From an uncultured delta proteobacterium (GTDB lineage: Bacteria > Myxococcota_A > Polyangia > Palsa-1104), in assembly GCA_963785725.1 (NCBI GenBank), contig CAWAWS010000005.1, positions 32,001 to 96,000 on the forward strand: a DNA stretch of 64,000 bases. The letters are read 5' to 3'. Shown here one piece after another: positions 1 to 47,359 of the stretch. Position numbers and translations under genes: made by a program. Every line of letters starts with the position of its first letter. The first letter of the stretch is position 1. The notes beneath the pieces were generated by a model that made no database searches, was not told the origin of the DNA, and was given only the letters and a program-made list of their open reading frames with translations.

Positions 1-859
1 CGAGATTGCGCAGCACCTGGCGCAGGTGGGCCGCGTCGCCGCGCAAAGGTGGCATCGCCTCCAAACCGACGACCTCGATGCGGACCCCCGGCGGCACGAT
101 CAGCGACGAGCAAACGCTCTCGATCAGGGGTGCCAGGGCGACCGCCTCGCGCAGCAGCGGCCGCTCGCGAATCATGTCGAGCAGCGAGCTGACGATGTCG
201 TTGGCGATGCCGAGCTGCTCGCCTACGCGGGTCACGTGCTTGTGCACGCGCGGGTCGCTGCCGGCGTTCTTGTCGATGATGAACATCGAGGACTCGATGA
301 CGCCGAGCGGGTTGCGCAGCTCGTGGCCGATCGAGCCGATGAGCTGCCCGAAGGTGGCCAGCCGCTCCTTGCGCGCCTGCTGCGCTTCCATGTCCTCGCG
401 GTAGGTATGCAGCATGATGGCGAGCTCGAGATCGAGCATCTTGCCGATGGCTCGCTGCGTGAGCAGCAGCGTCTCGGGAGCGCTGCGATAGGCGTGCTCG
501 ACGACCCCTTTGAGCTCGTCGCGGAGCACGTTCATGGCGCCGAACATGTAGTGCTGCGGCAAGCCAATCCGTACGTGCACACGGCCGATGAGGCAGCGCA
601 GCTGGTAATAATCCTCGTCCCACGGCCCGGCCAGCAGCCAATCCATCCACTGCACGAGCTTGACCTTGAGGTGGCCGACGGTCGACTCGCCGCTCTCGAG
701 CACGCCGCGCGCCTCATCGTGTTCCTGGATGCGCGCGTAGAAGACATCGGCGATGCGCTGGAAGTGCGGCGCGGCGATCGGCCGCAGCGCGTGGAGCGCC
801 TGCTCGTGCGGCGCGCTCCACCCGACATAGCGTTTGAGCTCGGCGAACAGCGTCTCCAT
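1..859 (-). CDS. Globin-coupled (protoglobin) sensor histidine kinase, AfGcHK-like; runs off the window edge
   Basis: Hand translation from ATG 859: METLFAELKRYVGW...FYARI...IGRVHVRIGLPQHYMFGAMN...LDLELAIMLHTYRED...FGQLIGSIGHELRNPLG (globin plus HisKA H-box), reaching GDAAHLRQVLRNL at the edge. Confidence 0.9.
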   Translation of the reverse strand, partial: METLFAELKRYVGWSAPHEQALHALRPIAAPHFQRIADVFYARIQEHDEARGVLESGESTVGHLKVKLVQWMDWLLAGPWDEDYYQLRCLIGRVHVRIGLPQHYMFGAMNVLRDELKGVVEHAYRSAPETLLLTQRAIGKMLDLELAIMLHTYREDMEAQQARKERLATFGQLIGSIGHELRNPLGVIESSMFIIDKNAGSDPRVHKHVTRVGEQLGIANDIVSSLLDMIRERPLLREAVALAPLIESVCSSLIVPPGVRIEVVGLEAMPPLRGDAAHLRQVLRNL

Positions 860-1019
860 TGCGGACTGATGGTGCCTCGTTTCCGGGCCGAGCGATATCG
901 ACAAGCGCCGGCTACCCGCGGAATCTGCAGACTAGGCGCACGTTGGGCCGCCTTCGGCGCCGACCGCGACGAGCGGCGCACGATGCCGCCGTCGCCGCAA
1001 TCGGAGCGCCGAGGCTCGA

Positions 1020-1445
1020 CTAAGGATGTTGCCGCTGCGCAGCGCGCAGACGTGGTGAGCGCGGCGAGCGACCGAGCGCGATCGGGTCGACGATGCGGGC
1101 TTCCTGCCTGATGAAGCGACGGAACAGCATCTCGACTCGGCCGAGCGTGCGGGAAAAGACGCGATGGTCATCGTAAGCGACCTCGACCTCGCTCACCGCC
1201 GTCCGCAAGCTGCGGCTGGTCGCGCACAGACCGGCCCACAACCGCTGTCGCAGCGGTCGGGGAAACAGCGCGTGGGCCTGAAGGCGCAGATGCCGGTCGA
1301 GCCGCTCGGCGAACTGCGCGAACGACGCTGCTGCAGCCGAGGGCAGCCGCTCTGCCAACAGCGTGCGCGTCTCGGCCAACAGCGCTTCGAGCTGCGGACG
1401 ATCGTCGAGAAGGAAGAGCGCGACCGCGTGCTCGCTGCCGCTCAC
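1020..1445 (-). CDS. Degenerate hemerythrin (HHE)-like protein
   Basis: Helical pattern FLLDDRPQLEALL / LDRHLRLQAHALFP / FIRQEARIV parallels hemerythrin DH, RHxxxEExxLFP and HxxKEE, with most ligands lost; GTG start inferred. Confidence 0.45.
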   Translation of the reverse strand: MSGSEHAVALFLLDDRPQLEALLAETRTLLAERLPSAAAASFAQFAERLDRHLRLQAHALFPRPLRQRLWAGLCATSRSLRTAVSEVEVAYDDHRVFSRTLGRVEMLFRRFIRQEARIVDPIALGRSPRSPRLRAAQRQHP

Positions 1446-1537
1446 GACGACCACCCCATCGTCGGACACGAATGCGCGACTGCGCACCACAGGGCATCTT
1501 CGAACGAGCGAATGGACAGGGTCGGCGTCATCGGCAT
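1442..1537 (-). CDS. Putative 31-aa small ORF coupled to the hemerythrin-like gene
   Basis: GGAG RBS plus ATG downstream of a sigma54 motif; stop overlaps the next GTG (GTGA). Confidence 0.3.
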   Translation of the reverse strand: MPMTPTLSIRSFEDALWCAVAHSCPTMGWSS

Positions 1538-1558
1538 CGGTTCTCCGCTGCCGCTTTT

Positions 1559-1574
1559 TGCGCATATCGTGCCA
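1559..1574 (-). promoter_or_regulatory. sigma54 promoter
   Basis: TGGCACGATATGCGCA (GG-N10-GC). Confidence 0.65.
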
Positions 1575-1635
1575 AGCTGCCCGCGCGCGCACGCTGGAGT
1601 CGCGTAGCTCGCCACCGGCGCGCTGTCGGAGATCG

Positions 1636-1678
1636 CGCAAGCCGCGCCGTCTTGGGCCACGCACGCGCAAGGCTTGCG
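1636..1678. promoter_or_regulatory. Paired enhancer-like boxes
   Basis: CGCAAGCCGCGCC (weak) and CGCAAGGCTTGCG, starts 30 bp apart. Confidence 0.55.
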
Positions 1679-1817
1679 CGCTTTGGTGATTTGCGGCCGA
1701 GCCGACCGCGAACGCGCGATTCATGCTGCTCTTGGCGGCGCCACTGCACAGACTGGGCGAGCCGCGCGAGACGACGACCGACCCGCGCTCGAGCGCGAGC
1801 GACGGCCGCTCGCTTCC

Positions 1818-2270
1818 CTACTTCGCGCCGGGCTGCGGACGCACGGTGACGACCGGAACGCTGCTCCGCCGCACCACTTGTTCCGCGACGCTGCCGAGCA
1901 CCAGGTGCTTGAAGCCACCGCGACCGTGCGTCCCCAAGACCACGAGGTCGAAGCGGCCCGAGTTGGCGAGCGATGTCACGACGTCCGCGGCCAAACCAAC
2001 TTGCACCTCGCCGGTGCACGGCGCCAGCTCGCGCGAGCGCTCGATCGCCTCGTCGATCCGCTTCTGTCCGCCGCTGACTTCGGCGGCGATGGCTTCGTTC
2101 ATCACGACGATGGCCTCGGGTGAAACGAACGTCGGCGGCTGCGCGACGTACAAGAGATGCAGCGCTGCCCCGAAGCGGCGCGCCAGCAGGACGGCGTATT
2201 CCATGGCCGGCTGCGAGCAGGCGGAGAAGTCGGTGGCGACCAGGATCCGTTTCGGTTCCGTGGGTTTCAT
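1818..2270 (-). CDS. Universal stress protein
   Basis: RILVATDFS...DLVVLGTHGRGG...LGSVAEQVVR. Confidence 0.93.
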   Translation of the reverse strand: MKPTEPKRILVATDFSACSQPAMEYAVLLARRFGAALHLLYVAQPPTFVSPEAIVVMNEAIAAEVSGGQKRIDEAIERSRELAPCTGEVQVGLAADVVTSLANSGRFDLVVLGTHGRGGFKHLVLGSVAEQVVRRSSVPVVTVRPQPGAK

Positions 2271-2283
2271 GAGACTGCGACGA

Positions 2284-2299
2284 AGCAAGCGACGTTCCA
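2284..2299 (-). promoter_or_regulatory. sigma54 promoter, near-leaderless
   Basis: TGGAACGTCGCTTGCT; ATG 15 nt after the -12 C. Confidence 0.75.
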
Positions 2300-2530
2300 G
2301 ACGTCGCGCGCGACGCACTCGGGGACAGCCGGCGACGACGCGGCGCCGCGCCGAACAAGACGAAGCCGGGATGGCAGGCCGGGTAGCCCAGAAAAAAAAA
2401 TGGACACGCTCGTCGAGAACGCAGACGCCGCTCGTCGATCACCAAAGGCTGAGATAGCCGGACAACGAAGTGCCGGCGCCCGCGAGCGGAGTCGCCACGC
2501 GCAGCTCCGTTTGGCTGCGCATGTCACGAC

Positions 2531-2986
2531 TCAGCCGTCGCCGCGGTCGTCGTCCGGCCCTTCGAGGTTGGCCTGGTGTCGGGCGACCTCGATGAGCGTC
2601 GCGGCCGCGCGCTCCGGCTTGTGCGCCGCGATGTCGGCCAGGCTGACGACACCGAGCGGCCGTCCCTCGCCGTCGGCGACGAGGATGCGCGACTTTTCGT
2701 GCAGGATCATCAAATCCTGCGCCCGCTGCACGTCGTCGGTGGCGCGGCACGATACGGGCTCCGGCGACATGACGTCCGAGACCCGTGTCTTCTTGGCCTT
2801 CAAGTTCTCGGCGCAGATGCGCAGCGCGAGGTCGCGATCGGTGACGACGCCGACGGCCTTGCCGGCTTTGTCGCAGACCGGCAGGAATCCGATGTTCCGG
2901 TCACGCATGCGACGCGCAGCCTCTTGGACCGTATCGTGACGACGAACGGTCTGAATCGACGTGCTCATGATCTCTTGGCACAGCAT
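2531..2986 (-). CDS. CBS-pair protein
   Basis: IGFLPV...VGVVTDRDL...LGVVSLADI; GGAGG RBS. Confidence 0.92.
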   Translation of the reverse strand: MLCQEIMSTSIQTVRRHDTVQEAARRMRDRNIGFLPVCDKAGKAVGVVTDRDLALRICAENLKAKKTRVSDVMSPEPVSCRATDDVQRAQDLMILHEKSRILVADGEGRPLGVVSLADIAAHKPERAAATLIEVARHQANLEGPDDDRGDG

Positions 2987-3010
2987 GCGGACCTCCTGCG
3001 CGTGGCGGAG

Positions 3011-3026
3011 AGCAACCGATGTGCCA
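3011..3026 (-). promoter_or_regulatory. sigma54 promoter
   Basis: TGGCACATCGGTTGCT, near consensus. Confidence 0.8.
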
Positions 3027-3101
3027 TCGCGCCCAGCCGTTCGGCGGCGAATGGCGCGACGACATCGCGGCGCGCGCCCGGCGCTTGCATCGCGCGTACG
3101 C

Positions 3102-3812
3102 ATGGCGAGCGACGTCGAGTTTCACACGCGCATCGATCCGCACCGCAGCAGCTCGCGGCTGAGCGACATCATCCTCGGCGGACAGGATGGCCTCATCAAC
3201 GTGCTCGGCGTGATCCTCGGCGTCGCCAGCGCCACCGCGGACGTGCGCATCGTGCTCGCCGCCGGTGTCGCCGCCGCACTGGCGGAGTCGGTGTCGATGG
3301 CGGCCGTCGCCTATACCGCCCGCCGCGCCGATCAGGCGCTCTACGAGAGTGAGCTGGCGCGCGAGAAACGACATATCGATCGCGTGCCGACCTTGGAGAC
3401 GGAAGAGATCCGCAGCCTCTACCGCGACAAAGGCTTCACGGGCGCGCTCCTCGATCAAGTGGTCGCGACGATCACGGCGAACAAAGAGGTCTGGCTGGCG
3501 GTGATGATGGCCGAGGAGCTGCGCCTGCAACCGAGCGATCGCCGGAGCGCGCTGCGTGCGGCGCTGGTCGTCGGCGGGTCGGCGCTGCTGGGCTCGGCGC
3601 TGCCGCTGCCGCCCTTCCTCATCCTCGGCATCCACCACGCGATGTGGCTGGCGGTCATCATCTCGGGCGTCGTGCTGTTCGCGGTCGGCGCCTACAAGAA
3701 CGCGCGCACCGTCGGCAGCTGGCTCGGCGGTGGGCTCGAGATGGCGGCCATCGGTCTCGCCGCCGCCGCCATCGGCTGGCTCGTGGGTCTCGCGTTTCGC
3801 ACGCCCGTGTGA
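3102..3812 (+). CDS. VIT1/CCC1-family Fe/Mn transporter
   Basis: LSDIILGGQDGL, SMAAVAY, E-rich cytoplasmic loop, MMAEEL, about 5 TM helices. Confidence 0.9.
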   Translation: MASDVEFHTRIDPHRSSSRLSDIILGGQDGLINVLGVILGVASATADVRIVLAAGVAAALAESVSMAAVAYTARRADQALYESELAREKRHIDRVPTLETEEIRSLYRDKGFTGALLDQVVATITANKEVWLAVMMAEELRLQPSDRRSALRAALVVGGSALLGSALPLPPFLILGIHHAMWLAVIISGVVLFAVGAYKNARTVGSWLGGGLEMAAIGLAAAAIGWLVGLAFRTPV

Positions 3813-3836
3813 CGCGTGAATGGCACGGCGCGAACG

Positions 3837-3879
3837 CGCAAACCCTGCGCCGACAGCGAGCGCGAACGCAGAGCATGCG
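3837..3879. promoter_or_regulatory. Paired enhancer-like boxes
   Basis: CGCAAACCCTGCG and CGCAGAGCATGCG, 30 bp apart, 32 bp from the promoter. Confidence 0.7.
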
Positions 3880-3910
3880 CGCCACAGAGCGCAGCTTCGC
3901 GAGCCGCAGC

Positions 3911-3926
3911 TGGCATCGCTTTCGCT
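3911..3926 (+). promoter_or_regulatory. sigma54 promoter, near-leaderless
   Basis: TGGCATCGCTTTCGCT; ATG 15 nt after the -12 C; conserved upstream of the paralog at 21988. Confidence 0.7.
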
Positions 3927-3939
3927 AACAAGCCGCTCC

Positions 3940-5115
3940 ATGCACACGATCACGGTCTTCGTCATCCTTGCTGCGTTGGTGGCGCTCGCTTGGCAGTACC
4001 GGCGGTTGCTGCCGGCGGCACAAAGGCGCAGCGAGCCGCCGCCGCCACCGGCGCGATATCCTTCGTTGACGATGGTGCGACCCATCCGCGGCCTCGACTT
4101 CGGCGCGAGTGAGAACGTCACGGCGCTGCTCGCCTCCACGTATCCCGGGACACTGGAGCTTCTCTTCGTCCTCGATGACGAGAGCGACCCGGCGCTGCCG
4201 CTGGTGCGCGCGCTCGTCGCCGCGCATGTCGCCAAGCAGCCGCGGGCGCAGGTCAAGGTGCTGCTCGCGGGCGCGCCGCCGGCGGGACGCACCGGCAAGC
4301 TGCACGCGATGTCGGTCGGCGTCCGCCAGGCCACCGGCGAGCTCATCGGCTTCACCGACTCCGACACGCGGCTCGCGCCGGATCAGCTGCAGGCGATGGT
4401 CGCTGAGCTGCTCGCTTCGCCGCTCGCCGGCGACGTCTTTGCGCCAGCCGTCGCGGTGTCGCCGCCACGCACCATCGGCGATGCCGGCTATGCGCTCATG
4501 CTCAACAGCTGGTACGGCGCGGTCGCCGCCGCCAGCGCCGGCGAGACGCACGAGCTGCCCTTCATCATGGGTCAGCTCATGATCTTCCGTCGCGAGGCGC
4601 TCGTCGCCATCGGCGGCGTCGAGAGCGCCGACGGCCAGCTCGTCGACGACATGTACCTCGGCCGTCGCGTCGTCGCATTCGGTTACCGCAACCTCATGAG
4701 CCGTCAGCCGCTGCGCGTGGTCTCGGAGCAGCTCAGCCTGTCGGGCTTCGTCGTGCTCATGCGCCGCTGGCTCCTCTTTTCGCGCAGCGGTCTGCCCACG
4801 CGCTTCAAGCGTCCCGCCTGGATGCACGGCTTGGCGCTCGGTGTGACGCTGGCCGCGCTGTGTGGCGCGCTCATCGCCGGCTGGACGGCCGTCGCGATCT
4901 TCGCGGCGCTCACGCTGGCCATGGGCTGCATCGGCGACGTCTTCCTGCACCGGGAGCTGGGCGGCGCGCCCATGCCGCTCAAGTGGTGGTGGGTGACCTT
5001 GATCGTGCCGGTGCTCGGCCCGTTTGCGCTCGCTTCGCTGCTCTTCGACCGCCACGTCGACTGGCGTGGTCGCGACTACGCGCTCGACACCGGCGCGCAC
5101 CTCGGCCACTCGTAG
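3940..5115 (+). CDS. GT21/GT2 glycosyltransferase (ceramide glucosyltransferase/HpnI-like)
   Basis: RPIRGLD, GKL, DSD, MG, LVDD, MRRW, C-terminal TMs and WRGRDY. Confidence 0.85.
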   Translation: MHTITVFVILAALVALAWQYRRLLPAAQRRSEPPPPPARYPSLTMVRPIRGLDFGASENVTALLASTYPGTLELLFVLDDESDPALPLVRALVAAHVAKQPRAQVKVLLAGAPPAGRTGKLHAMSVGVRQATGELIGFTDSDTRLAPDQLQAMVAELLASPLAGDVFAPAVAVSPPRTIGDAGYALMLNSWYGAVAAASAGETHELPFIMGQLMIFRREALVAIGGVESADGQLVDDMYLGRRVVAFGYRNLMSRQPLRVVSEQLSLSGFVVLMRRWLLFSRSGLPTRFKRPAWMHGLALGVTLAALCGALIAGWTAVAIFAALTLAMGCIGDVFLHRELGGAPMPLKWWWVTLIVPVLGPFALASLLFDRHVDWRGRDYALDTGAHLGHS

Positions 5116-5321
5116 CCGTAGGCGGTCGCGAAGTGGAGAACGATCGAGCGCTCCGCGCCGTCGCCGCCGCGCAGACGAACACGCCGCGGCGCACCATAGC
5201 CGGCCGCCTTTTACGTCTCGCCGGGAATGTTCGCGTCGGCGCCGAGCAGCTCGACGGCGTCCGCCGGCGGAATCGTCTGTTGCGACCGCGTCGAGGCTCA
5301 TCTCGAACCTCCTGCAGGCGA

Positions 5322-6389
5322 TCAGGGCTTGAGCGCGATCTTGAGGACGCCCTCGCGACGCTCGCCGAACAGCCGATAGGCGTCCACGACCTGGTCGAGC
5401 GCCATCGTGTGCGTCACGAGCGGCTGCAGGTCGAGCCGGCCATGCTCGACGAGCGCGAGCAGCCGGCGCATCCGCTCTTTGCCGCCCGGACAGAGCGAGG
5501 TGACGATGCGTTGGCCGCCGATTCCCGCACTGAACGCGTCGTTCGGCAGCTGCAGCTTGGTCGCGTAAACGCCGAGGCTCGACAATGTGCCGGCGGGACG
5601 CAAGCAGCGCAGCCCCTGCTCGAACGTCGCTTGGCTGCCGAGCGCTTCGATGGCGACGTCGGCGCCGCCTCCGGTCAGCCGCTTGACCTCGGCGACCACG
5701 TCCTGCGACTGCGGATTGAGGGTCACGTTGGCGCCCATGCGCCTCGACAGCTCACGCCGATAGCTCTCGGGATCGACGCCGATGATGAGCGCCGCGCCCA
5801 TGAGACGCGCGCCGACGACGGCGCACAGACCGATCGGCCCCTGCCCGAGCACGACGACCGCGTCGCCGAGCCGCACGCCGCCGGACTCCGCGCCGGCAAA
5901 ACCCGTCGACGCCACGTCCGCCAACATCAGCGCCTGCGTGTCGCTCACCGAGTCGGGAATCAGCGCCAAATTGGCCTGCGCATTGGGCACGCGCAGGTAC
6001 TCCGCTTGCGCGCCGTCGATGGTATGGCCGAAGCGCCAGCCGCCGGTCAGCTGATAGCCGGCGCCGTCGCCGCACTGCGCGCCGTTGCTCGAGAGGCAGG
6101 CCGCGCACTGGCCGCAGGGCGTGATGGCGCCGACGAGCACGCGCTGGCCCACCGAGTAGCCGCGCACGCCGGCGCCGATCTCGGCGATCACGCCGACGGC
6201 TTCGTGGCCCACCGTGAGGCCGGGCTCGATCGGGTATTCGCCACGCAAGATGTGCAGATCGGTCCCGCAGATCGTCGTCAGCGTCACCCGCATGACCACG
6301 TCGCCGGCTTGCGCGATCGGGATCGGCTTCTCGTCCAGGGCGATCTGCCCAACGCCGACGAATGCTGCGACCTTCATCGTCTTCTTCAT
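5322..6389 (-). CDS. Zn-dependent alcohol dehydrogenase (MDR family)
   Basis: CGTDLH, GHE, CGQCAAC...C, GQGPIG. Confidence 0.92.
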   Translation of the reverse strand: MKKTMKVAAFVGVGQIALDEKPIPIAQAGDVVMRVTLTTICGTDLHILRGEYPIEPGLTVGHEAVGVIAEIGAGVRGYSVGQRVLVGAITPCGQCAACLSSNGAQCGDGAGYQLTGGWRFGHTIDGAQAEYLRVPNAQANLALIPDSVSDTQALMLADVASTGFAGAESGGVRLGDAVVVLGQGPIGLCAVVGARLMGAALIIGVDPESYRRELSRRMGANVTLNPQSQDVVAEVKRLTGGGADVAIEALGSQATFEQGLRCLRPAGTLSSLGVYATKLQLPNDAFSAGIGGQRIVTSLCPGGKERMRRLLALVEHGRLDLQPLVTHTMALDQVVDAYRLFGERREGVLKIALKP

Positions 6390-6445
6390 GGTCGTCCTCG
6401 CTCCGGCTTCGACGCCGTGACGTCATTCGTCTCGGCCCTCCACAA

Positions 6446-6461
6446 TGCGAGGTGAGTGCCA
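6446..6461 (-). promoter_or_regulatory. sigma54 promoter (ADH)
   Basis: TGGCACTCACCTCGCA. Confidence 0.7.
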
Positions 6462-6521
6462 ACCCGCGCGACGACCGCGACGACGACGGCGATTGCGCTG
6501 ACGCTGTGCCGGCCGAGAGCC

Positions 6522-6564
6522 CGCAACGCTTGCGGCGCATGAACGCCGGCGCGCAAATCCTGCG
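6522..6564. promoter_or_regulatory. Paired enhancer-like boxes shared by divergent promoters
   Basis: CGCAACGCTTGCG and CGCAAATCCTGCG, 30 bp apart. Confidence 0.75.
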
Positions 6565-6604
6565 AGCTTCGCCGCGGAACGAGCGTGAGCGCCCGGGCAG
6601 CCGT

Positions 6605-6620
6605 TGGCCCTCGTCTTGCG
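6605..6620 (+). promoter_or_regulatory. sigma54 promoter, near-leaderless
   Basis: TGGCCCTCGTCTTGCG; first ATG 15 nt after the -12 C. Confidence 0.7.
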
Positions 6621-6633
6621 ATTGGTGCGCTGC

Positions 6634-7098
6634 ATGATGATGCGCAGGCTGTTGGTTCCCGTCGATTTCTCCGAGCGCTCGCGCGCGCAGCTCGACTACG
6701 CCTTCGCGCTGGCCGAGCTCACGAAGCTCGACGTCGACGTGCTGCACGTCATTGCCGGGCCGAGCCCGACGCGCGCGGCGGTCGACGCCTACGTCGGCCG
6801 CCCGATGCCGCACGTCTCGCGGCTCGACGAATCGACGGCCTATCAAGAGCTGGGCGACCTCGTGGACATCTGTCTCCGGCGCGGTATCGTGCCGCGCTTG
6901 CTGGTCGAGGCCGGCGACGTGGCCTCCGCCATCGTCCGCGTCGCCGCCGAGGCGCCGGCCGACCTCATCGTGCTGGCGACGCGCGGCCATCGTGGTGTCG
7001 CCGAGCTGCTCCTCGGCAGTGTCGCCCACGCGGTGATCACGACCGCCGGGTGCCCCGTCGTCACGCTCGGCGAAGCGGCGACGCGCGGCACGCGCTGA
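6634..7098 (+). CDS. Universal stress protein
   Basis: RLLVPVDFS...DLIVLATRGHRG...LGSVA. Confidence 0.9.
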   Translation: MMMRRLLVPVDFSERSRAQLDYAFALAELTKLDVDVLHVIAGPSPTRAAVDAYVGRPMPHVSRLDESTAYQELGDLVDICLRRGIVPRLLVEAGDVASAIVRVAAEAPADLIVLATRGHRGVAELLLGSVAHAVITTAGCPVVTLGEAATRGTR

Positions 7099-8372
7099 TG
7101 CGCCTCGTCGACGCCGAGGAAGCGATCGCGCTCGCGGTGTCCTCGGGCCGGCAGCTGTTCGTGCAAGGTGGCGCCGCGACGCCGTCGCTGCTGCTGGCGG
7201 CGCTGGCGGCTCGCGGGCCGACGCTCGACGGCGTCGGGGTCGTGCATCTGCACTGCGAAGGCGCCGCGCCCCATCTCGCACCCGAGCTGGCCGGCCACCT
7301 GCGCCATCGCGCGCTCTTCGTCGGCGCCAATGCACGCGCGGCGGTCGCCGAAGGACGCGCGGACTACATTCCCGTCTTCCTCTCCGACATTCCGCGGCTG
7401 TTCGCGCGGCGCCAGCTGCGCATCGACGTCGCGCTCGTCAACGTCTCGCCGCCCGACGCGCACGGCTACTGCACGCTCGGCCCGTCGGTCGACGTCACGA
7501 TGGCGGCCATCGAAGCCGCCGACGTCGTCGTCGCGCAGATCAACAGCGGTCTGCCGCGCGTCCTCGGCGACGGCATTCTCCACGTCGACGACATCGACTT
7601 CGGCGTCGCCTGCGCCATACCACCCTACGTTAGTGCCGTGCACGAGGTTGGCGACGTCGAGCGCCGCATCGGTCAGCACGTGGCCGAGCTCGTGCCCGAC
7701 GGCGCGACGCTGCAGCTCGGGATCGGCGGGCTGCCGGGCGCGATCTGCGCTGCGCTCGCGGACAAGCGCCACCTCGGCATCCACAGCGAGCTGTTCTCCG
7801 ACGGCGTCGTCGACCTGGTGGAGCGCGGCGTCGTCGACGGCGCCGCCAAGGAGCTCGATCGCGGCAAGATCGTCGCCGCCTTCGTCGTCGGCAGTCCGCG
7901 CGTCTATCGCTTCATCGACGACAACCCGATGGTCGAGCTGCGGCGCGCTGACTACACCAACGATCCGGGCGTCATTCGCCGGTTCCGCAAGATGGTCGCC
8001 GTCAACAGCGCCATCGAGGTCGACTTGACGGGCCAGGTGTGCGCCGACTCGATCGGCGCGCGCATCTACAGCGGCGTCGGCGGCCAAGTCGACTTCTTGC
8101 GCGGGGCGGCGCTGGCCGACGAAGGCCGCGCCATCGTCGCGCTGCCCGCCTGCGCCGCCGGCGGACGCCTCTCGCGCATCGCGGCCGAGCTGCAGCCGGC
8201 CGCCGGCGTCGTCACGACGCGCGCGCACGTCCATACCGTCGTGACCGAATACGGGGTCGCCGAGCTGCACGGCCGGGCCATCGGCGAGCGCGCGCGGTCG
8301 CTCATCGCCATCGCGGCGCCGCAGTTCCGGGAGGCGCTCACGGCCGAGGCCCGGCGGCGTCACTACCTCTGA
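7098..8372 (+). CDS. Acetyl-CoA hydrolase/4-hydroxybutyrate CoA-transferase family protein
   Basis: TGATG overlap; DGATLQLGIGG, HLGIHSE, NSAIEVDLTGQV, SGVGGQVDF, VVTEYG. Confidence 0.92.
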   Translation: MRLVDAEEAIALAVSSGRQLFVQGGAATPSLLLAALAARGPTLDGVGVVHLHCEGAAPHLAPELAGHLRHRALFVGANARAAVAEGRADYIPVFLSDIPRLFARRQLRIDVALVNVSPPDAHGYCTLGPSVDVTMAAIEAADVVVAQINSGLPRVLGDGILHVDDIDFGVACAIPPYVSAVHEVGDVERRIGQHVAELVPDGATLQLGIGGLPGAICAALADKRHLGIHSELFSDGVVDLVERGVVDGAAKELDRGKIVAAFVVGSPRVYRFIDDNPMVELRRADYTNDPGVIRRFRKMVAVNSAIEVDLTGQVCADSIGARIYSGVGGQVDFLRGAALADEGRAIVALPACAAGGRLSRIAAELQPAAGVVTTRAHVHTVVTEYGVAELHGRAIGERARSLIAIAAPQFREALTAEARRRHYL

Positions 8373-8412
8373 TCGAACGACGCGCGGCGCGTCGACGACC
8401 GATTCGTGACGG

Positions 8413-8465
8413 CGCAGTGTTTGCGGCCCGAATCGGGCTCACGACTCATCGACGCAAGCCTTGCG
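8413..8465. promoter_or_regulatory. Paired enhancer-like boxes
   Basis: CGCAGTGTTTGCG and CGCAAGCCTTGCG, 40 bp apart, 32 bp from the promoter. Confidence 0.7.
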
Positions 8466-8496
8466 CGCGATCGGGGTCGAACCGTGCCTTTGGCGC

Positions 8497-8512
8497 TGGT
8501 CCGTAGGTTGCT
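8497..8512 (+). promoter_or_regulatory. sigma54 promoter of the cytochrome operon, near-leaderless
   Basis: TGGTCCGTAGGTTGCT; ATG 14 nt after the -12 C. Confidence 0.72.
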
Positions 8513-8524
8513 GAGGCACACCGC

Positions 8525-11020: not shown

Positions 11021-12205
11021 GTGCGGCTGCCGATGGTGCTGGTCAGCCTCCTCGCGGTCGGCTGCGGCGTGGCGCGCGCCGTCGACGGCCGCCGGTGCGC
11101 CAGCGCCGCCGACTGCGAGCAGATCCATCCCGCCGGCATCGCCGATCCGAGCAGCCCCGACTTTCACGGGCAGCTCGTGCAGTCGCTCGGCTGGAACCTC
11201 GGGCTGTGCGCGCAGTGCCACGGCGCCGACTTCAGCGGCGGCGCCTCGGGCAAGTCGTGCCTGACGTGCCATGCCCAAGGACCGACCGCCTGCACCGTCT
11301 GCCACGCACAACCGCCGGCGACGGGCGCGCACGTCGCCCACGCCGCCAAATACGACTGCACCGTCTGCCACGTCAAGCCGGCAGCGTGGAACGATCCCGG
11401 GCACCTCTTCGCCAGCGACGGCAGCGTCATCACGAGCGCGCGCATCACGTTCGGCGGGCTCGCCGTGAGCCACGGCGCGACGCCGAGCTGGGATGGCGCC
11501 AGCTGCAGCGGCACCTATTGCCACGGCAGCGCCAAGCCGGTCTGGACCGGCGGCGCCGGCCAAGCGGCCTGCGGCAGCTGCCACGCCATTCCGCCCGCCA
11601 ACCACGCCAGCAGCCGCTGCGGCGACTGCCACGTCCGCGTCGCCAACGACCAGGCGCAGATCGTCGACGACGCGCTACACGTCGACGGACAGGTCAGCCT
11701 CGGCGATGACAGCGGCACCTGCCTCGCCTGCCATCCGCAGCCGGGCGGCGCGCACGCCAGCCACACGCAGGCGCTGCACGAGCTGCGCGCCCCGCTCGGC
11801 TGCCCCGAGTGCCACGTCGTGCCCACGATGCTCACGAGCCCCGGCCACATCGATCAGCCGAGCGCGCCAGTCTTCCCCGCCGGCTGGAGCGGGCTCGGCG
11901 CCAACGACGGCGCGCAGCCGACCTGGAGCCTCGCCGCCGGTCAGTGCAGCAGCGTCTACTGCCACGGCGGCGGCAAGACGCTCGGCGCCGACGCCGCCGC
12001 GACGATCATTCGTCAGCCGACGTGGATTCCCGGCAGCGGTGCCGCCAGCTGCGGCGCCTGCCACGGCATCCCGCCCGTCGACGGCGCGCACTCGGCCTCG
12101 ATGGGGCTCGGCGACTGCGCGACGTGCCATCCGACGACGATGAACGCCGGCGGCGGGCTCATCAGCGGCGGCACCCATATGGACGGCGTCATCGATGCGC
12201 TTTAG
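11021..12205 (+). CDS. 12-heme cytochrome c lipoprotein (CxxCH/CxxxxCH type)
   Basis: Lipobox AVGC; 10 CxxCH plus CSGTYCH and CSSVYCH. Confidence 0.88.
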   Translation: MRLPMVLVSLLAVGCGVARAVDGRRCASAADCEQIHPAGIADPSSPDFHGQLVQSLGWNLGLCAQCHGADFSGGASGKSCLTCHAQGPTACTVCHAQPPATGAHVAHAAKYDCTVCHVKPAAWNDPGHLFASDGSVITSARITFGGLAVSHGATPSWDGASCSGTYCHGSAKPVWTGGAGQAACGSCHAIPPANHASSRCGDCHVRVANDQAQIVDDALHVDGQVSLGDDSGTCLACHPQPGGAHASHTQALHELRAPLGCPECHVVPTMLTSPGHIDQPSAPVFPAGWSGLGANDGAQPTWSLAAGQCSSVYCHGGGKTLGADAAATIIRQPTWIPGSGAASCGACHGIPPVDGAHSASMGLGDCATCHPTTMNAGGGLISGGTHMDGVIDAL

Positions 12206-32000: not shown

Positions 32001-32004
32001 GGCC

Positions 32005-34618: not shown

Positions 34619-34752
34619 GCGCTGCCGCCACTCAGGCGCAACGAGCGCTCGAGCCCGACGCGTGCCACCGTCCGATCTACCGGGCCGAAACCTGTGTGCG
34701 GCCTGCCGTCGCAACTGGATTCTTGTTGGCCGACTCCGGCCGCCGCGCTCGG

Positions 34753-35837: not shown

Positions 35838-35849
35838 GATTGAACGCGA

Positions 35850-35939
35850 CGCAACATCCATTCCGTGCCGGCTGGCCGAGCCGCCCGCGATCAACCCGCA
35901 ATCAGTGCGACACTCGATGGCGCCGGCTCGTTTCTTGCT
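35850..35939. promoter_or_regulatory. Divergent sigma54 promoters with a central box
   Basis: (-) CGGAATGGATGTTGCG 35850-35865; box CGCAATCAGTGCG 35897-35909; (+) CGGCTCGTTTCTTGCT 35924-35939. Confidence 0.7.
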
Positions 35940-35952
35940 GACTGCTGCATTC

Positions 35953-37007: not shown

Positions 37008-37715
37008 GTGAAATCCTTGGACGTTCTGGTTGTCGACGATCACGAAGTATTCCGCGACGGTTTACGGACGGTGATCGAATCGCAGCCGAACGCCCGCATC
37101 GTGGCCGAGGCGTCTTCGGTGCGCGAGGCGACCGCGCTGCTCGACACGCTCGTGTTCGACCTCCTCATCCTCGATCTGACGATGCCGGGCGTCAACGGCA
37201 TCTCGCTCGTGCGCGAGATGCGCCGTCGCGGCTGCCGACAGCGCATCCTCGTCCTGACCATGCATGCCGACGCCGATATCGCCGCCGAGGCGTTCGCTTG
37301 CGGCGCCGCCGGCTTCGCACTGAAGTCCGATAGTCGCGCGACGCTGCTCGGGGCCATCGACCGCGTGATGCGCGGTGAGCGTTTCGTCGCGCCGACGCTG
37401 CCGATCGATCGGATCGATCGCTTCTTGTCGGCGCGGCCGAGCGCGTTCGACGCCTCGGGCGTGCTCGCCGTGCTGTCGGCGCGCGAACGCGAGGTCTACG
37501 ATCTGCTGGTGCGCGGCTACGAAAATGGCGGGATCGCGATCGAGCTGTCGATCTCGCGCCGCACGGTCGATACCCATCGCACGCATGTCTTCAATAAGCT
37601 GGGCGTGCATTCGATTGGCGAGCTGTTGCGCTTCGGCTTTCGCAAGCAGCTCGTGCGCGAGAGCGAAGGCGCCGTGGAGGCTCAGCCGCCACCTCCGCCC
37701 AAGCCGACGCGCTGA
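37008..37715 (+). CDS. NarL/FixJ-family response regulator
   Basis: VVDDH, LDLTMPG, LTMH, LSAREREV...TVDTHR...KLG. Confidence 0.93.
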   Translation: MKSLDVLVVDDHEVFRDGLRTVIESQPNARIVAEASSVREATALLDTLVFDLLILDLTMPGVNGISLVREMRRRGCRQRILVLTMHADADIAAEAFACGAAGFALKSDSRATLLGAIDRVMRGERFVAPTLPIDRIDRFLSARPSAFDASGVLAVLSAREREVYDLLVRGYENGGIAIELSISRRTVDTHRTHVFNKLGVHSIGELLRFGFRKQLVRESEGAVEAQPPPPPKPTR

Positions 37716-38060: not shown

Positions 38061-42367
<4,307 letters not shown>

Positions 42368-42375
<8 letters not shown>

Positions 42376-42706
42376 CGAGCGCCACAAAAGGGACGCCGCC
42401 CCGGCGCCGACCTTCGCCGCCCGGGTCGGCGCGAAAGCGACACGCAAGCTGAGCGCGCGCCGCAATCCCGCGCAAGGCGTGTGGTTTGGCCTCGGCATGA
42501 TGGGGCTCGTCGGCTGGTCGGTGACGATTCCCACGCTGCTCGGCGCGGCGCTGGGGAGCTGGCTCGACCGGCGGCACTCCGGCCCGCATCCGTGGACGCT
42601 GGCGCTGCTGATGGCCGGGCTCGTGATCGGCTGCTTCAACGCGTGGCATTGGGTCGCCAAAGAGGACAAGGCGATGCAAGACGAACGGCAGGAAGACCAT
42701 GAATGA
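42368..42706 (+). CDS. atpQ: N-ATPase AtpQ (AtpZ/AtpI-like)
   Basis: GLGMMGLVGWSV...GSWLD...NAWHW; operon position. Confidence 0.85.
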
Positions 42707-43013
42707 GGCAGTAACCATCGGGCTGGCCGGCGTGGCCGGCGGAATGCTGGGCCTCGTCTTCTTCGGCGGTCTGTGGTGGACCATTCGCAAGGGCGTCGCG
42801 GCCAAACAGCCGGCGCTCTGGTTCTTGGGCAGCCTATTCGTCCGAATGAGCGTCACCGTCGCCGGCTTCTATCTCGTCTCGGCGGGCAGCTGGAAGCGGC
42901 TGCTGTCATGCCTGCTCGGATTCGTCTTGGCCTGCGCGGCGGTGACCCGACTGACCCGCCGGTCGAGCGAGCCGGTGGCCGACCGCGCCGCCGCGAGCCA
43001 CCATGCGCCTTAG
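42699..43013 (+). CDS. atpR: N-ATPase AtpR
   Basis: FFGGLWWT...SLFVR; operon position. Confidence 0.85.
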   Translation: MNEAVTIGLAGVAGGMLGLVFFGGLWWTIRKGVAAKQPALWFLGSLFVRMSVTVAGFYLVSAGSWKRLLSCLLGFVLACAAVTRLTRRSSEPVADRAAASHHAP

Positions 43014-43728
43014 CTCCGACACGCTGATCTTCTGGCAGCACGGCTTTGTCAAGCTCAACGGCACCATCGTGTTCACGTGGGGACTGATGCTGCTCCTGAC
43101 CGTCGGCTCGTGGCTCACCACCCGCAAGCTCTCGCTCGACCTGAAGCGCGCCCGCTGGCAAAACGTCCTCGAGATCATCGTCACGACGATCGACCAACAG
43201 ATCGCCGAAGTCGGGCTCCGCAATCCCGAGAAGTATCTCGGCTTCTTGGGCACGCTCTTTCTATTCGTCGCCGTGGCCAACCTGTGCACCGTCATTCCCG
43301 GCTATCAGCCGCCGACGGGCTCCCTGTCGACGACGGCGGCGCTGGCGCTGTGCGTCTTGGTCGCCGTCCCCGTCTTCGGAATCGCCGAGCAGGGATTGGG
43401 CGGCTATCTCGAGTCCTATCTCGAGCCGACCTTCATCATGCTGCCCTTCAATATCATCAGCGAGATCTCGCGGACGCTGGCGCTCGCCATTCGCCTCTTC
43501 GGCAACATGATGAGCGGCGCCATGATCGTCGCCATTCTGCTCACGATCACGCCCTTCATCTTTCCCGTCGTCATGACGGCGCTCGGCCTTTTGACCGGCA
43601 TGGTCCAGGCCTACATCTTCAGCATTCTGGCCGCGGTCTATATCGCGGCCGCCACGCGTAAGCACAAGCGGGCGGTCGGCGCAGGCTCGAGCATTCAACG
43701 AACCAACGAGAGGTCGCAGCATGGATAG
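43003..43728 (+). CDS. atpB: N-ATPase a subunit
   Basis: PPT, SRTLALAIRLFGN, VQAYIF. Confidence 0.94.
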   Translation: MRLSSDTLIFWQHGFVKLNGTIVFTWGLMLLLTVGSWLTTRKLSLDLKRARWQNVLEIIVTTIDQQIAEVGLRNPEKYLGFLGTLFLFVAVANLCTVIPGYQPPTGSLSTTAALALCVLVAVPVFGIAEQGLGGYLESYLEPTFIMLPFNIISEISRTLALAIRLFGNMMSGAMIVAILLTITPFIFPVVMTALGLLTGMVQAYIFSILAAVYIAAATRKHKRAVGAGSSIQRTNERSQHG

Positions 43729-44002
43729 CTCGACGGTCATTGCGGTGGCGTCCATTGTCGTCGCCGGCATCACCACCGGATTCGGCACGATGGGCCCGGC
43801 GCTGGCGGAAGGCAGAGCGGTCGCGACCGCGGTCAGCTCGCTGGCGCAGCAGCCCGACGCCTCGGCGACCATCACCCGAACCCTGTTCGTCGGCTTGGCG
43901 ATGATCGAATCGACGGCCATCTACTGCTTCGTGGTCTCGATGATCCTCATTTTCGCCAATCCATTCTGGAATCACGCCATCGCCCATGCAGCGACGAAGT
44001 AA
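43721..44002 (+). CDS. atpE: N-ATPase c subunit with Na+-type ligands
   Basis: PALAEG, QQP loop, ESTAIY. Confidence 0.94.
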   Translation: MDSSTVIAVASIVVAGITTGFGTMGPALAEGRAVATAVSSLAQQPDASATITRTLFVGLAMIESTAIYCFVVSMILIFANPFWNHAIAHAATK

Positions 44003-44004
44003 CC

Positions 44005-44839
44005 ATGCTCATCGACTGGTTCACCGTCGGAGCGCAGGCGCTCAACTTCGTCATCCTCGTCTGGCTGATGAAGCATTTTCTATATAAGCCCATCCTCCGC
44101 GCCGTCGACGCGCGCGAGCAACGGATCGCCAAGGAGCTCGCCGACGCCGACGCCGCGCAGCGCGAGGCCCATCAGGCGCGTGACGAGCTCCAGCAGAAGA
44201 ACGAGGCCTTCGACCGCCAGCGCGCCGACTTGCTCGGGCGCGCGACCGACGCGGCCCAAGCTGGAGCGCGATCGGCTCTTCGAAGCGGCGCGGCAAGCGG
44301 CCGAGACCGCCGGCGCCAAGCGACGCGAGACGCTGAAGAACGACGCGCACTCGCTGGAACAGCTGATCCGCCTCAAGACCCAGACGGAAGTATTCGCCAT
44401 CGCCCGACGGGCGCTGACGGACCTCGCCGCCGTCAGCCTGGAAGAGCGACTGGTGGCCGTGTTCAATCGCCGGCTCGGGGAGATGGACGACCGGGCAAAG
44501 ACCATCCTCATCGAAGCGCTCACGAAGACCACCGAGCCGGCGCTGGTGCGCTCCGCGTTCGACTTACCGCCCGAGCAGCGCGCCGCCATTCACGAGACCC
44601 TCAAGAGTCGCTTGGCGGTCGAGGTCCAGCTCCGCTTCGAGACTGCGCCCAGCCTGATCGGAGGGATCGAGCTGAGCAAGAATGGCCAGAAGATCGCCTG
44701 GAGCATCCAGGACTATCTGGCGTCGCTGGAGAGCGAGATGGGCGACCTCTTGAACCCACCGGCGCAGCCGGCGCCGAGGCCCGAGAACGCGACAGAGCAG
44801 TCGAGCGCCGCGAGCAGGTCCAATGGACACTTCGTCTAG
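44005..44839 (+). CDS. atpF: N-ATPase b(-delta) subunit; frameshift ~44256
   Basis: [13 protein letters not shown]...LYKPI; shifted frame VRSAF...LIGGIEL...WSIQDYL. Confidence 0.88.
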
Positions 44840-46466
44840 CGAGCTGCACAGCGTCTTCGACCGCGCGTTCGCCGAGATCGCCGCAGCGCGAGAGGCGTTC
44901 ACGCCGCGACTGGCGCCGCGGGAAGTCGGCACGATCAAGACGGTCTCCACGGGTATCGCGAAGGTCGCCGGTCTGCCCGGCGTGGGCTTCGAAGAGCTGC
45001 TCGAGTTTCCCGGCGACGTGTTCGGCATCGCGTTCAATCTGGACGTGGATGAGGTCGGCGTCATCTTGCTCGGCGAATACTCGCAGCTGCACGCCGGCGA
45101 CGAGGTCAAACGCACCGGCCGGGTCATGGACGTGGCCGTGGGCGAGCAACTGCTCGGGCGGGTCATCGACCCGCTCGGCCGGCCGCTCGACGGCAAGCCG
45201 CCGATCGTCGCCGCCGCGCGCTTGCCCATCGAGCGCCCGGCCGCGCCCATCATGGATCGCGCGCCCGTCAATATTCCGCTGCAAACCGGCCTCAAGGTCG
45301 TCGACGCGCTCGTCCCCATCGGCCGCGGCCAGCGTGAATTGATCCTCGGAGATCGCCAGACCGGCAAGACGGCGATCGCCATCGACACGATCGTGAACCA
45401 ACGCGGCAAGGATGTCCTGTGCGTCTATTGTGCGATCGGTCAGCGCGCCTCCGCCGTCGCCAAGGTGATCGCGAATCTGCGGGACGCGGGAGCGATGGAT
45501 TACACCGTCGTCGTCGTGGCCGAGGGCAATGAAGCGCCCGGCCTCGCCTACATCACGCCCTACGCCGCGACCAGCATCGCCGAGCACTTCATGGAGATGG
45601 GCCGCGACGTCCTCATCGTCTACGACGATCTCACGCAGCACGCCCGCGCCTATCGGGAGCTGTCGCTGCTGCTGCGCCGCCCGCCCGGTCGCGAGGCCTT
45701 TCCCGGCGACATCTTCTACATTCACTCGCGCCTGCTCGAGCGATCGACCCATCTGCGGTCGGAGCGCGGCGGCGGCTCGCTCACCGCCCTGCCCATCATC
45801 GAGACCGAAGCGCAGGATATCTCCGCCTATATCCCGACCAACCTGATCTCGATTACGGACGGGCAGATCTATCTGTCGCCGTCGCTGTTCGAGCTGGGCG
45901 TGCTGCCGGCAGTCGATGTCGGCAAATCGGTCTCGCGCGTCGGCGGCAAGGCGCAGCGCGCCGCCTACCGCGCGGTCACCGGCGACCTCAAGCTCGCCTA
46001 CGCGCAGTTCGAAGAGCTGGAGGCCTTCGCGCGGTTCGGTGCCCGCCTCGACGAGAACACGCGCAAGATCATCGAGCACGGACGGCGCATCCGCGCCTGC
46101 CTCAAGCAGGCCGAGCTCGTCTCGATCTCGATGCCGGTCCAGATTGCGATCCTGTTGGCGTTGACGGAGAAGCTCTTCGACGCAGTGCCGCTCGATCGGA
46201 TGGTCGACGCCGAGGAGGCCGTGCGGGCGGCAGCGTTGACCACTTCCGCGGCCATCTGCGGGCGATTCGAGAGCGCCGCCCAATTGAATGACGCTGATCG
46301 TCAGGCGATCGTGGAGCTCGCGCGCCTGGCGCTCGTGCCCTTTCATACCCGTGCGGAAGGTCAGTCTGAAAAGGAGGCAGCGTCCACGCGCGCAGCGGTC
46401 TCCACCGCCACCGCGCAAGCCGACGTCGCGCCGAAGCCCGCGTCTCCGTCGACTGGAAAGTCATGA
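44823..46466 (+). CDS. atpA: N-ATPase alpha subunit
   Basis: [28 protein letters not shown]. Confidence 0.95.
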
Positions 46467-47359
46467 GTGACACGACGGCGAGCCTGCGTCGGAAGATCAA
46501 CAGCGCCGGCGAGCTCCAGTCGGTCGTCAGGACGATGAAGGCGCTGGCCGCTTCCAGCATCGGACAATATGAACAGTCGGTGCGCGCCGTGGCCGACTAC
46601 CATCGAGCCGTGGAGCTGGGCTTGGGCGCCTGCTTCCGCGCCACGGCGCCGGCGCGCTCGACAGCCGAGCCGCGGCCGCGAGCCGAGGCAGGCCCGATCG
46701 GCGCCGTCGTCTTCGGCTCCGATCAGGGCCTGGTCGGGCAGTTCAATGAGGTCGTGACAGATTATGCCGTCGGAAAGCTCGCGGAGCTGCCTGGCGGCCC
46801 GCTGGTCTGGGCCGTCGGCGAACGGGTCCACGCGCGCCTGACCGATGCGGGCATCCCAGTGATGGCGCTCTTTAGCCTGCCCAGCTCAGCCGAAGCGATC
46901 ACGCCACTCGTGGGACGAATTCAAGTCGAGACCGAATCGCGTCTCGCCGAAGGGAAGCAAACCTGTCTCTATGTCTTTCATAATCGGCCGCAGTCCGGCG
47001 CGCTGTACGAGCCGGTCAGTCAGCGTCTGCTGCCGATCGACGCCCAATGGCAGCGCGACGCAGCGCGAGCGCCTTGGCCGACCGGCAACTTGCCCGAGGT
47101 CGTCGGCGGCGGCGCGACTACGCTGCAAATGCTCATCCGTGAATACTTGTTCATCTCGCTCTTTCGGGCCTGCGCGGAGTCTCTGGCGAGCGAGAACGCC
47201 AGCCGCCTGGCGGCGATGCAGCGCGCCGACAAAAACATAGACGAGCTGATCGAGAGCCTCAGCGGCGCATTTCATGGCCTGCGGCAGAGCAGCATCGACG
47301 AAGAGCTGTTCGATGTCATCTCGGGTTTCGAAGCGCTGGGCAAGAACGAGCTCGCCTGA
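46463..47359 (+). CDS. atpG: N-ATPase gamma subunit
   Basis: [34 protein letters not shown]. Confidence 0.93.

Follow-up and report, generated by a model that had tools for sequence, protein, structure and literature searches.

What joins the universal stress protein (USP), CBS-domain, alcohol dehydrogenase (ADH) and multiheme cytochrome genes that crowd the first 47 kb of a 64,000-nucleotide stretch of DNA from an uncultured delta proteobacterium? The whole stretch, called here the window, is G000:C5:32001-96000, where G000 denotes the source genome (8.9 Mb, 68% GC, 47 contigs, 88% complete); bare coordinates are window positions. A sequence-only reading had taken this island for a DosR-like hypoxia and dormancy programme rebuilt on sigma54 and assembled convergently or horizontally. 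We favour another account, at a probability of roughly 0.78: the left 36 kb would be an expanded and clustered NmpRSTU regulon, switched on at low oxygen, and the right 11 kb would have been acquired separately, without NmpR control. Orthology, conserved heme and phosphorylation residues, the motif, promoter geometry and conservation in relatives were computed here, while the relay steps given below are inferred from work on Myxococcus xanthus and Anaeromyxobacter.

In M. xanthus, NmpU passes phosphate to NmpT and to the NmpS receiver, and NmpS phosphorylates NmpR; in the authors' model, phosphorylated NmpS is off and NmpR is therefore on at low oxygen (PMC11841059, PMC6211767). NmpR binds pairs of GCGCA-N5-TGCGC sites, preferably 14-15 bp apart, and acts in a sigma54-dependent manner on seven promoters (23 genes), including those of a CBS gene, a USP, the cbb3 oxidase, hemN and hemerythrin. 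One target was raised 6.5-fold by hypoxia in sealed tubes. The same authors liken the USP to those of the tuberculosis dormancy regulon, and describe the regulon outside M. xanthus as unknown, naming Anaeromyxobacter (PMC11841059).

Genes were called with our own hexamer-scoring script, on which every intergenic count below depends, and were identified by Pfam/NCBIfam scans of 70 window proteins. A Myxococcus sp. locus (L110) served as reference, with the M. xanthus layout and residues as named in the Nmp papers (in L110, D54, V87 and K104 of NmpR, D59 of NmpS and H96 of NmpU). The best matches of the L110 proteins in G000 were C5:31699 for NmpU (58.8%), C5:30998-31702 for NmpT (48%; directly following nmpU), C24:190644 for NmpS (58.7%) and window position 28016 for NmpR (54.6%, 488 bits; the copy on C24 scored 472 and the next match 408). 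The globin domain of NmpU matches AfGcHK of Anaeromyxobacter sp. Fw109-5 (PDB 5OHE; PMC8697598) at E=3e-54, and Y41, L64, H95 and H179 are invariant in 8/8 NmpU orthologues; Y41, H95 and H179 correspond to Y45, H99 and H183 of AfGcHK, so that the distal Tyr, proximal heme His and phospho-His are kept. The first receiver helix of T-RR1 is like that of NmpS and unlike that of NmpR, in G000 as in L110. In a quick tree of 56 activator cores, 49 of them from G000 (three of the seven outside rows being other activators caught by the filter), both G000 NmpR copies, which are 86% identical, group with NmpR of Myxococcus, Anaeromyxobacter and Archangium (SH-aLRT 94), and the 47 other G000 activators fall apart from this group; the genome holds more than 57 sigma54 activators. 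On these matches, the soluble globin kinase, the dual receiver and the sigma54 activator are identified as orthologues of NmpU, NmpT and NmpR. The low-oxygen reading is probably right, because NmpR is hypoxia-activated in M. xanthus. Thus the earlier proposal that a low-oxygen heme sensor controls the USP and CBS genes through sigma54 is upheld by orthology to NmpRSTU, and its description as a rebuilt DosR is not.

The intact nmpS (G000:C24:190644-191750; 72% to same-genus NmpS) belongs to a second Nmp locus, G000:C24:187600-207000, where it stands back to back with the second nmpR. Also in this locus are a PAS kinase and a four-CBS gene that has a perfect site, as well as a row of receiver/kinase genes that ends at a predicted NmpR promoter (206746). 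The contiguity of nmpU, nmpT and nmpS is broken in G000 and kept in the relatives G002, G003 and G004.

Motif evidence came from an unbiased dyad count comparing 37 island intergenic regions (9.2 kb) with 4756 others. The top dyad, CGCA-N5-TGCG, had 16 sites against 0.56 expected in island intergenic DNA, and is identical to the published NmpR consensus GCGCA-N5-TGCGC (PMC11841059). From 1666 to 35897 there are twenty intergenic sites, and in 36-47 kb there is none; a slightly different pattern gave 19 sites against 0.61 expected (-1100..36000) and 0 against 0.10 (36000-47400). The sites mostly form pairs with a spacing of 30 bp, and sigma54 sites follow 30-130 bp downstream. Sigma54 -24/-12 sites with at most one mismatch number 7 in the island against 0.95 expected; allowing two mismatches gives 27 against 4.4, a count that is raised artificially by the likeness of the NmpR half-site to the -12 box. 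The features of the left part are as follows.

G000:C5:30998-31702, left of the window: nmpT orthologue (dual-receiver), next to nmpU
1..859 (-): nmpU orthologue, 5' part of a protoglobin-HisKA-HATPase kinase gene that ends 301 bases left of the window
1665..1679: perfect NmpR-type site; sigma54-like site 1559-1574 (-) before the poorly scoring open reading frame (ORF) 1020-1469
1818..2270 (-): USP; sigma54 site 2284-2299
2531..2986 (-): CBS-pair protein; perfect sigma54 site 3011-3026
3102..3812 (+): VIT1 Fe/Mn transporter (domain scan)
3836..3926 (+): NmpR site pair, 15-bp gap, and sigma54 site
3940..5115 (+): GT21 (HpnI-like) glycosyltransferase (domain scan)
5322..6389 (-): Zn-dependent alcohol dehydrogenase family (domain scan)
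6446..6620: divergent promoter, NmpR pair 6521/6551, sigma54 sites on both sides
6634..8372 (+): operon of USP and acetyl-CoA hydrolase/CoA-transferase (domain scan)
8412..8512 (+): NmpR site pair, 25-bp gap, and sigma54 site before the conduit operon; kept in relatives
8525..15742 (+): predicted porin-cytochrome conduit operon (domain scans, CxxCH counts)
15755..15856 (+): NmpR site pair, 15-bp gap, and sigma54 site
15878..17400 (+): three CBS-pair genes (domain scan)
17397..18630 (+): two USPs, the first frameshifted, the second with a Cys motif at its C-terminus; sigma54 site 17881
18732..19061 (+): small membrane-protein gene, with NmpR site pair and weak sigma54 site
19102..19164 (+): possible relic of the glgP N-terminus, match below significance
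19211..21779 (-): P-type ATPase, MgtA-like, with a single frame change
21792..22003: divergent promoter, NmpR pair 21913/21944, sigma54 sites on both sides
22016..23111 (+): second GT21 copy, three frames, 78% DNA identity to the first
23153..26458 (-): CBS, USP, CBS and pgm string; perfect NmpR site 26529, sigma54 site 25365
26914..27715 (-): Acg remnant and USP; NmpR sites 27775 and 27930, sigma54 site 27744
28016..29389 (-): nmpR orthologue, receiver, sigma54 AAA+ and helix-turn-helix; D54, V87, K104, GAFTGA
29464..29555 (-): putative autoregulatory promoter, NmpR pair 29511/29541, 15-bp gap, and sigma54 site
30701..31042 (+): stand-alone receiver with NmpR-like first helix
31154..31300 (+): relic of the nmpS 5' end, some 49 codons
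31497..32823 (+): CBS-pair gene (sigma54 site 31459) and PRC-barrel gene
32948..34618 (+): receiver and second ADH, with GC content at third codon positions (GC3) of 0.77, without NmpR or sigma54 site
35385..35837 (-): USP, 71% DNA identity to USP 1818; single NmpR site 35896

Regulon rules adapted from PMC11841059 (two sites, each with at most two mismatches and a perfect core, 5-50 bp apart, with a sigma54 site no more than 170 bp downstream of the pair) matched seven genes in the whole of G000. Six were inside the island, i.e. GT21, ADH, USP/CoA-transferase, the MtrC-like gene, CBS 15878 and nmpR, and the seventh was on C24, 14 kb from nmpS. The gap within the pair was 15 bp in 5/6 island genes, and 25 bp before the conduit. 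Permuted palindromes were used as control: 58/59 gave no island match, and the remaining one gave 2. Slightly relaxed rules add the divergent promoter of mgtA and the second GT21 gene, and the gene at 18861.

Taken together with the published work, this leads to the following model. Oxygen-bound NmpU would phosphorylate NmpT and the NmpS receiver, by which NmpS would be kept off. At low oxygen, NmpS, acting in trans from C24 where it lies beside the second nmpR, would phosphorylate NmpR, which would then oligomerise on the site pairs and open the sigma54 promoters. The targets switched on would be USPs, CBS proteins, ADH, CoA-transferase, GT21, the Mg-type ATPase, nmpR itself and the multiheme conduit, the latter providing an electron exit to extracellular acceptors and so replacing the cbb3 oxidase induced by M. 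xanthus. The xfp and N-ATPase genes, together with the lower-GC adh and receiver, would have been acquired separately, as a block such as plasmids carry. The stand-alone receiver at 30701-31042, kept in the clusters of G002 and G004, could be a phospho-sink of the NmpS branch; the M. xanthus papers describe no such component.

The system shares with M. xanthus its protoglobin kinase, dual receiver, hybrid kinase and NtrC-like activator, as well as the binding consensus, the 14-15 bp gap, the sigma54 promoters, the layout of nmpR autoregulation and the CBS/USP targets (PMC6211767, PMC11841059). Unlike there, the island targets are clustered and more numerous (7 USP and 7 CBS genes, ADH, CoA-transferase, GT21, VIT1, the MgtA-like ATPase and the multiheme conduit).

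How widely is this arrangement distributed? Kinase matches at E<=1e-40 were present in 24/61 related genomes, 13 of them besides G000 being near full length (55-69%). Among the best 80 of 413 nmpU loci, with neighbours counted within 10 kb, we found nmpS in 74/80, nmpT in 71/80, nmpR in 61/80, CBS genes in 49/80, USPs in 37/80 and the NmpR motif in 73/80; the counts are not independent, since the loci are related to one another and some few coincide with the related genomes compared. Of the close site pairs in these loci, 47/77 were spaced 29-31 bp. Two genomes of the same genus, G002 and G004, possess similar large clusters; among the genes listed there are the conduit, USPs, CBS genes, GT21, VIT1, CoA-transferase, Acg, xfp, and hemN or hemerythrin. 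The module has therefore mostly been inherited within the group, and was not assembled in this strain. Comparative genomics had been suggested as a check by the sequence-only reading, whose convergent or horizontally assembled module gives way to a system that is lineage-wide in myxobacteria, with nmpS and nmpR recurring beside nmpU at the frequencies just given.

Across Myxococcota, in loci L042-L121, the other genes behind NmpR-type sites, as named by eye from their sequence, included copper nitrite-reductase-like, cbb3, hemN, Crp-like, DksA-like, ribosome-hibernation-like, Hsp20, acyl-CoA synthetase and thiC genes. In L154 (G049) and L155 (G010), globin kinases of about 520 amino acids, longer than NmpU, adjoin nmpR and the conduit, with no separate nmpT or nmpS beside them. 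Genes for a sigma70-family factor are located inside the NmpR clusters of G002 and G003 (L023 8370-9173; L025 15132-15824).

Among the predicted targets, the conduit is an unexpected one. Its operon encodes a 10-heme MtrC/OmcA-like protein, a 10-heme CxxxxCH-type cytochrome, a putative porin, a 13-heme cytochrome, a split NapC-like protein, a small membrane protein and a monoheme cytochrome c. The MtrC-like protein scored 167.5 against the OmcA/MtrC model TIGR03507, below the cut-off of 209.3, and had no sequence match in PDB. The porin is putative, assigned by position and weak likeness: it had no Pfam match, its nearest named Atlas clusters are outer-membrane barrels (0.90-0.91), and its single-sequence model (pLDDT 30) was unusable. 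As in MtrCAB/OmcA conduits, a 10-heme protein with MtrC/MtrF domain, a putative porin, a periplasmic multiheme cytochrome and a NapC-like quinol oxidase are joined in one operon; unlike in those, there is a collagen-like linker, an extra Geobacter-type cytochrome and a sigma54/NmpR promoter.

Matches to the MtrC-like gene were found in 19/61 genomes of the relatives set and in 7/121 class-wide, and the conduit surroundings were examined in 15 of the 18 other genomes. A site pair and a sigma54 site stand directly upstream of the conduit in 5/16 genomes (G000, G002, G004, G011 and G041), the distal sites of G002 and G004 being degenerate. In G049 and G010 the conduit operon lies inside the Nmp cluster. 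G006 has one site before its conduit, and nmpR was not found there in a search of five genomes. No site was present in G003, G014, G017, G022, G025, G026, G032 and G054. Of four metagenome contigs, L179 shows the order CBS, USP, USP, site pair, sigma54 site and mtrC, L181 has one site and a sigma54 site, and in the other two the region or the sites are absent.

An NmpR-gated conduit predicts oxygen-controlled extracellular electron transfer. More broadly, it may be, although we would put this at slightly less than even odds, that in one lineage of uncultured, soil-type Polyangia with aerobic terminal oxidases NmpRSTU was rewired from microaerobic respiration (cbb3, hemN) to anoxic survival, directly activating a porin-multiheme conduit of at least 34 hemes and thereby extracellular electron transfer upon oxygen loss; the relay would then be a globin-sensed and sigma54-driven switch to extracellular respiration. 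As for oxidases, G000 has a split cydA and two genes for subunit I of heme-copper oxidases. Within open-access full text, no paper was found that connects myxobacterial conduits with oxygen control by Nmp or sigma54. The circuit and the DosR parallel are already in print (NmpR paper, PMC11841059; lxa, PMC3721108), so a DosR-like programme on sigma54 is not new in itself. What would be new here is the target list, especially the NmpR pairs and sigma54 promoter before the conduit, along with the expansion of USP and CBS genes and the fermentative enzymes. If true, it names an oxygen sensor and an operator for extracellular electron transfer in myxobacteria having heme-copper and bd oxidases, and the predicted promoters are short DNA probes, testable with existing M. 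xanthus reagents.

Several observations weigh against an NmpR regulon of this extent. i) As for the relay, the island holds only a relic of nmpS, about 49 codons long, with the intact gene on another contig beside a second nmpR, unlike in M. xanthus; again unlike in M. xanthus, only one site, a weak one with 2 mismatches, precedes nmpU, where a clear sigma54 site is lacking; and the tree is a quick version that leaves out frameshifted G000 activators. ii) As for the targets, binding was seen at only 5/10 predicted M. xanthus promoters and gaps of 24-28 bp gave mixed results (PMC11841059), a range into which the 25-bp gap of the conduit pair falls. Of the M. xanthus targets, cbb3 oxidase and hemN did not turn up: single queries gave no ccoNO match and only 30-37% hemN-like matches, in a genome that is 88% complete. 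iii) As for the relatives, of the 15 conduits examined, 9 have just one site, or else no pair directly upstream and no surrounding Nmp cluster, and the site-less conduit genomes G003, G017, G032 and G054 do hold nmpU or nmpR. iv) Several island genes are broken. v) Over the xfp/N-ATPase part, the intergenic DNA in which no site was found amounts to 1.5 kb, in essence two promoter regions.

DosS and DosT are GAF-heme kinases active without oxygen, and DosR is a NarL-type activator acting on 18-bp Dev boxes. The island resembles the DosR/DevR regulon of Mycobacterium tuberculosis in its content of USP, CBS (Rv2626c), Acg and P-type ATPase genes, in its tandem operators and in its heme-kinase input (PMC3177182, where the Dev box is described). 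This part of the proposed DosR likeness stands, and the part that would need a Dev box and a GAF kinase does not: no Dev box was found within 5 mismatches of a 20-bp consensus in the 64 kb, and the sensor is a protoglobin, no GAF being present among the 70 window proteins. Alpha-crystallin, narK2 and tgs1 were likewise missing from these proteins. The sign of the sensor is also opposite to that of DosS/DosT, since the AfGcHK type is on with oxygen (PMC8697598) and needs NmpS as an inverter. DosR membership was rejected on the box and the kinase. The lxa locus of Burkholderia cenocepacia is a low-oxygen-induced cluster of about 50 kb with six USPs, for which the DosR parallel was drawn by its authors; it is similarly a single cluster of USPs, ADHs, a nitroreductase, a cation ATPase and cytochromes, but it has a TGA-N6-TCA (Anr/Fnr-like) motif and CRP-family regulators instead of a globin kinase and sigma54 (PMC3721108). 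The FNR/Anr box TTGAT-N4-ATCAA was not found within 1 mismatch in the 64 kb (nine scattered sites had 2 mismatches), and FNR/Anr control was rejected on that ground. The analogy with DosR and lxa covers gene content and, probably, the trigger, but the island belongs to neither.

Could the whole 47 kb nevertheless be one co-induced low-oxygen dormancy programme, convergent with DosR, whose right part is reached through the NarL-type regulator or by read-through? The features concerned are:

37008..37715 (+): NarL-type regulator, without NmpR or sigma54 site
38061..40427 (+): phosphoketolase xfp, without NmpR or sigma54 site
40505..47359 (+): N-ATPase operon atpD-C-Q-R-B-E-F-A-G, atpF in two frames, without NmpR site

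The content that overlaps with DosR and lxa (USP, CBS, Acg, ATPase, ADH) agrees with such a programme, and a different xfp, 69% identical to that of the window in G004, stands behind NmpR site pairs in G002 and G004. However, no NmpR or sigma54 site precedes receiver 32948, adh 33632, the NarL gene or xfp, and GC3 in the right block is 0.77-0.88 against a genome median of 0.90. Strong AtpR matches occur in 2/61 related genomes, and the N-ATPase of G002 is located about 470 kb from its Nmp cluster, without a site. The ten best-matching plasmid copies of the window xfp share 75-82% identity with it and come from Actinobacteria, Proteobacteria, Bacteroidota and cyanobacteria. On a Polymorphobacter plasmid, 45 kb hold USP, PRC-barrel, N-ATPase, ackA, xfp and pgm; the combination of mgtA, VIT, ackA and xfp is found on other plasmids, as is that of pgm, glgP, ackA and xfp. 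In favour of a single programme, selection for use at low oxygen may thus have placed such genes in the island. The island block is like them in its atpDCQRBEFAG order with AtpR and without a delta subunit, and in its neighbours, which on NZ_CP080242.1 are USP, PRC-barrel, xfp and pgm, and on NC_007960.1, next to xfp, mgtA and VIT. It is unlike them (NZ_CP080242.1, NC_007960.1, NZ_CP143310.1) in that only xfp and the atp operon are present, adjoining the NmpR island. No paper linking N-ATPase with xfp/USP was found in the open-access full-text literature. We consider a single programme improbable, and one regulon across 47 kb was rejected for want of sites right of 36 kb. The pgm and mgtA genes may be older captures from plasmid-type blocks that now lie behind NmpR promoters.

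A second alternative accepts the NmpR orthologue and supposes a different input or sign, i.e. oxygen presence, NO/CO, heme redox state or the PAS kinase of C24; this seems less probable still. AfGcHK, active when oxygen-bound and inactive in its deoxy form, is also active as Fe(III) and Fe(II)-CO (PMC8697598); the locus has only an nmpS relic, the intact copy stands in line with a PAS kinase and receiver, and there are two NmpR paralogues. On the other side, intact nmpS keeps the M. xanthus specificity pattern, nmpU, nmpT and nmpS are contiguous in same-genus genomes, and the targets fit low oxygen.

That the island is a decaying pile of duplicated or imported genes, its motifs being leftovers and its regulon defunct in this strain, is the least probable account of all: it could explain the deletions in Acg, nmpS and perhaps glgP, the three frames of the second GT21 copy, paralogues of 66-78% DNA identity and the mobile-element-like genes to the left, but NmpU, NmpT, NmpR and NmpS are intact, the site pairs keep their exact spacing, and single frameshifts occur genome-wide (in 5/48 test loci outside the island, 41 kb in all, or roughly 1 per 8 kb), pointing to assembly errors. 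As such frameshifts affect housekeeping genes too (atpD and cydA are split), those in USP, mgtA, napC and atpF more likely reflect assembly error, whereas the Acg and nmpS remnants are true deletions. Given the rate outside the island, the reading of every frameshift as decay was rejected.

The inventory drawn up from the letters alone held well under Pfam/NCBIfam scans. Seven USPs (six intact and one frameshifted, 17412-17847) and seven CBS-pair genes were recovered, together with the VIT1 transporter, the MgtA-like ATPase in two frames, two Zn-ADHs, the CoA-transferase (acetyl-CoA hydrolase/transferase), xfp, the sigma54 activator, the receivers, the NarL-type regulator and the protoglobin-HisKA kinase completed off the window. 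The Acg relic is an 87-amino-acid remnant, both ends of which match the family (NF047509 E=2e-16; PDB 2YMV). The pgm product exceeded the TIGR01132 cut-off, as did the N-ATPase proteins those of TIGR03305/03324/03322 and AtpR, in a full operon; the cytochrome cluster has proteins with 10, 10 and 13 CxxCH motifs. The glgP relic is plausible, but its match (21 residues, E=1.7) lacks significance, and it was rejected as an established feature. When pgm, xfp and adh 33632 were scanned again, none had a sigma54 motif directly upstream; pgm lies 95 bp behind the CBS gene with sigma54 site 25365 and may be read through from that promoter. Clustering of USPs exceeds chance, with 8/16 genome USP matches (7 genes) within the island. 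The upstream activator motif, the second (frameshifted) GT21 copy and the leftward continuation of the island, where the nmpU kinase operon runs past the window edge, were absent from the sequence-only reading. A sigma70/terminator scan of 22900-41000 gave chance level only.

Some minor features remain. ORFs 1020-1469 and 34753-35142 had no match in the Pfam scan; by eye, the former (-) resembles hemerythrin-type genes of relatives' clusters. Cys-rich N-terminal CBS proteins (CP..C..C..C) recur in NmpR clusters, at 25823-26458 (-) and in relatives L023, L026, L151 and L155, and USP 17920 ends in a tail with a Cys motif. Close paralogues of several island genes are found elsewhere in G000 (C8:41210-50312, C22:258388-262500, C33:351589), i.e. 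of the NarL gene (79%), ORF 34753 (70%), the PRC-barrel gene (65%), USP 17920 (69%) and CBS genes (60-66%). Further left of the island there are low-scoring genes, a recombinase and primase-like ORFs; near the contig end, G000:C5:4475-18055 contains primase/helicase-like ORFs, a serine recombinase and an IS66 tnpB-like fragment. At the other side of the window, 59964-63610 (-) encodes P450, methyltransferase, MarR and thiamine pyrophosphate (TPP)-enzyme genes, and biosynthetic-looking genes continue beyond its edge.

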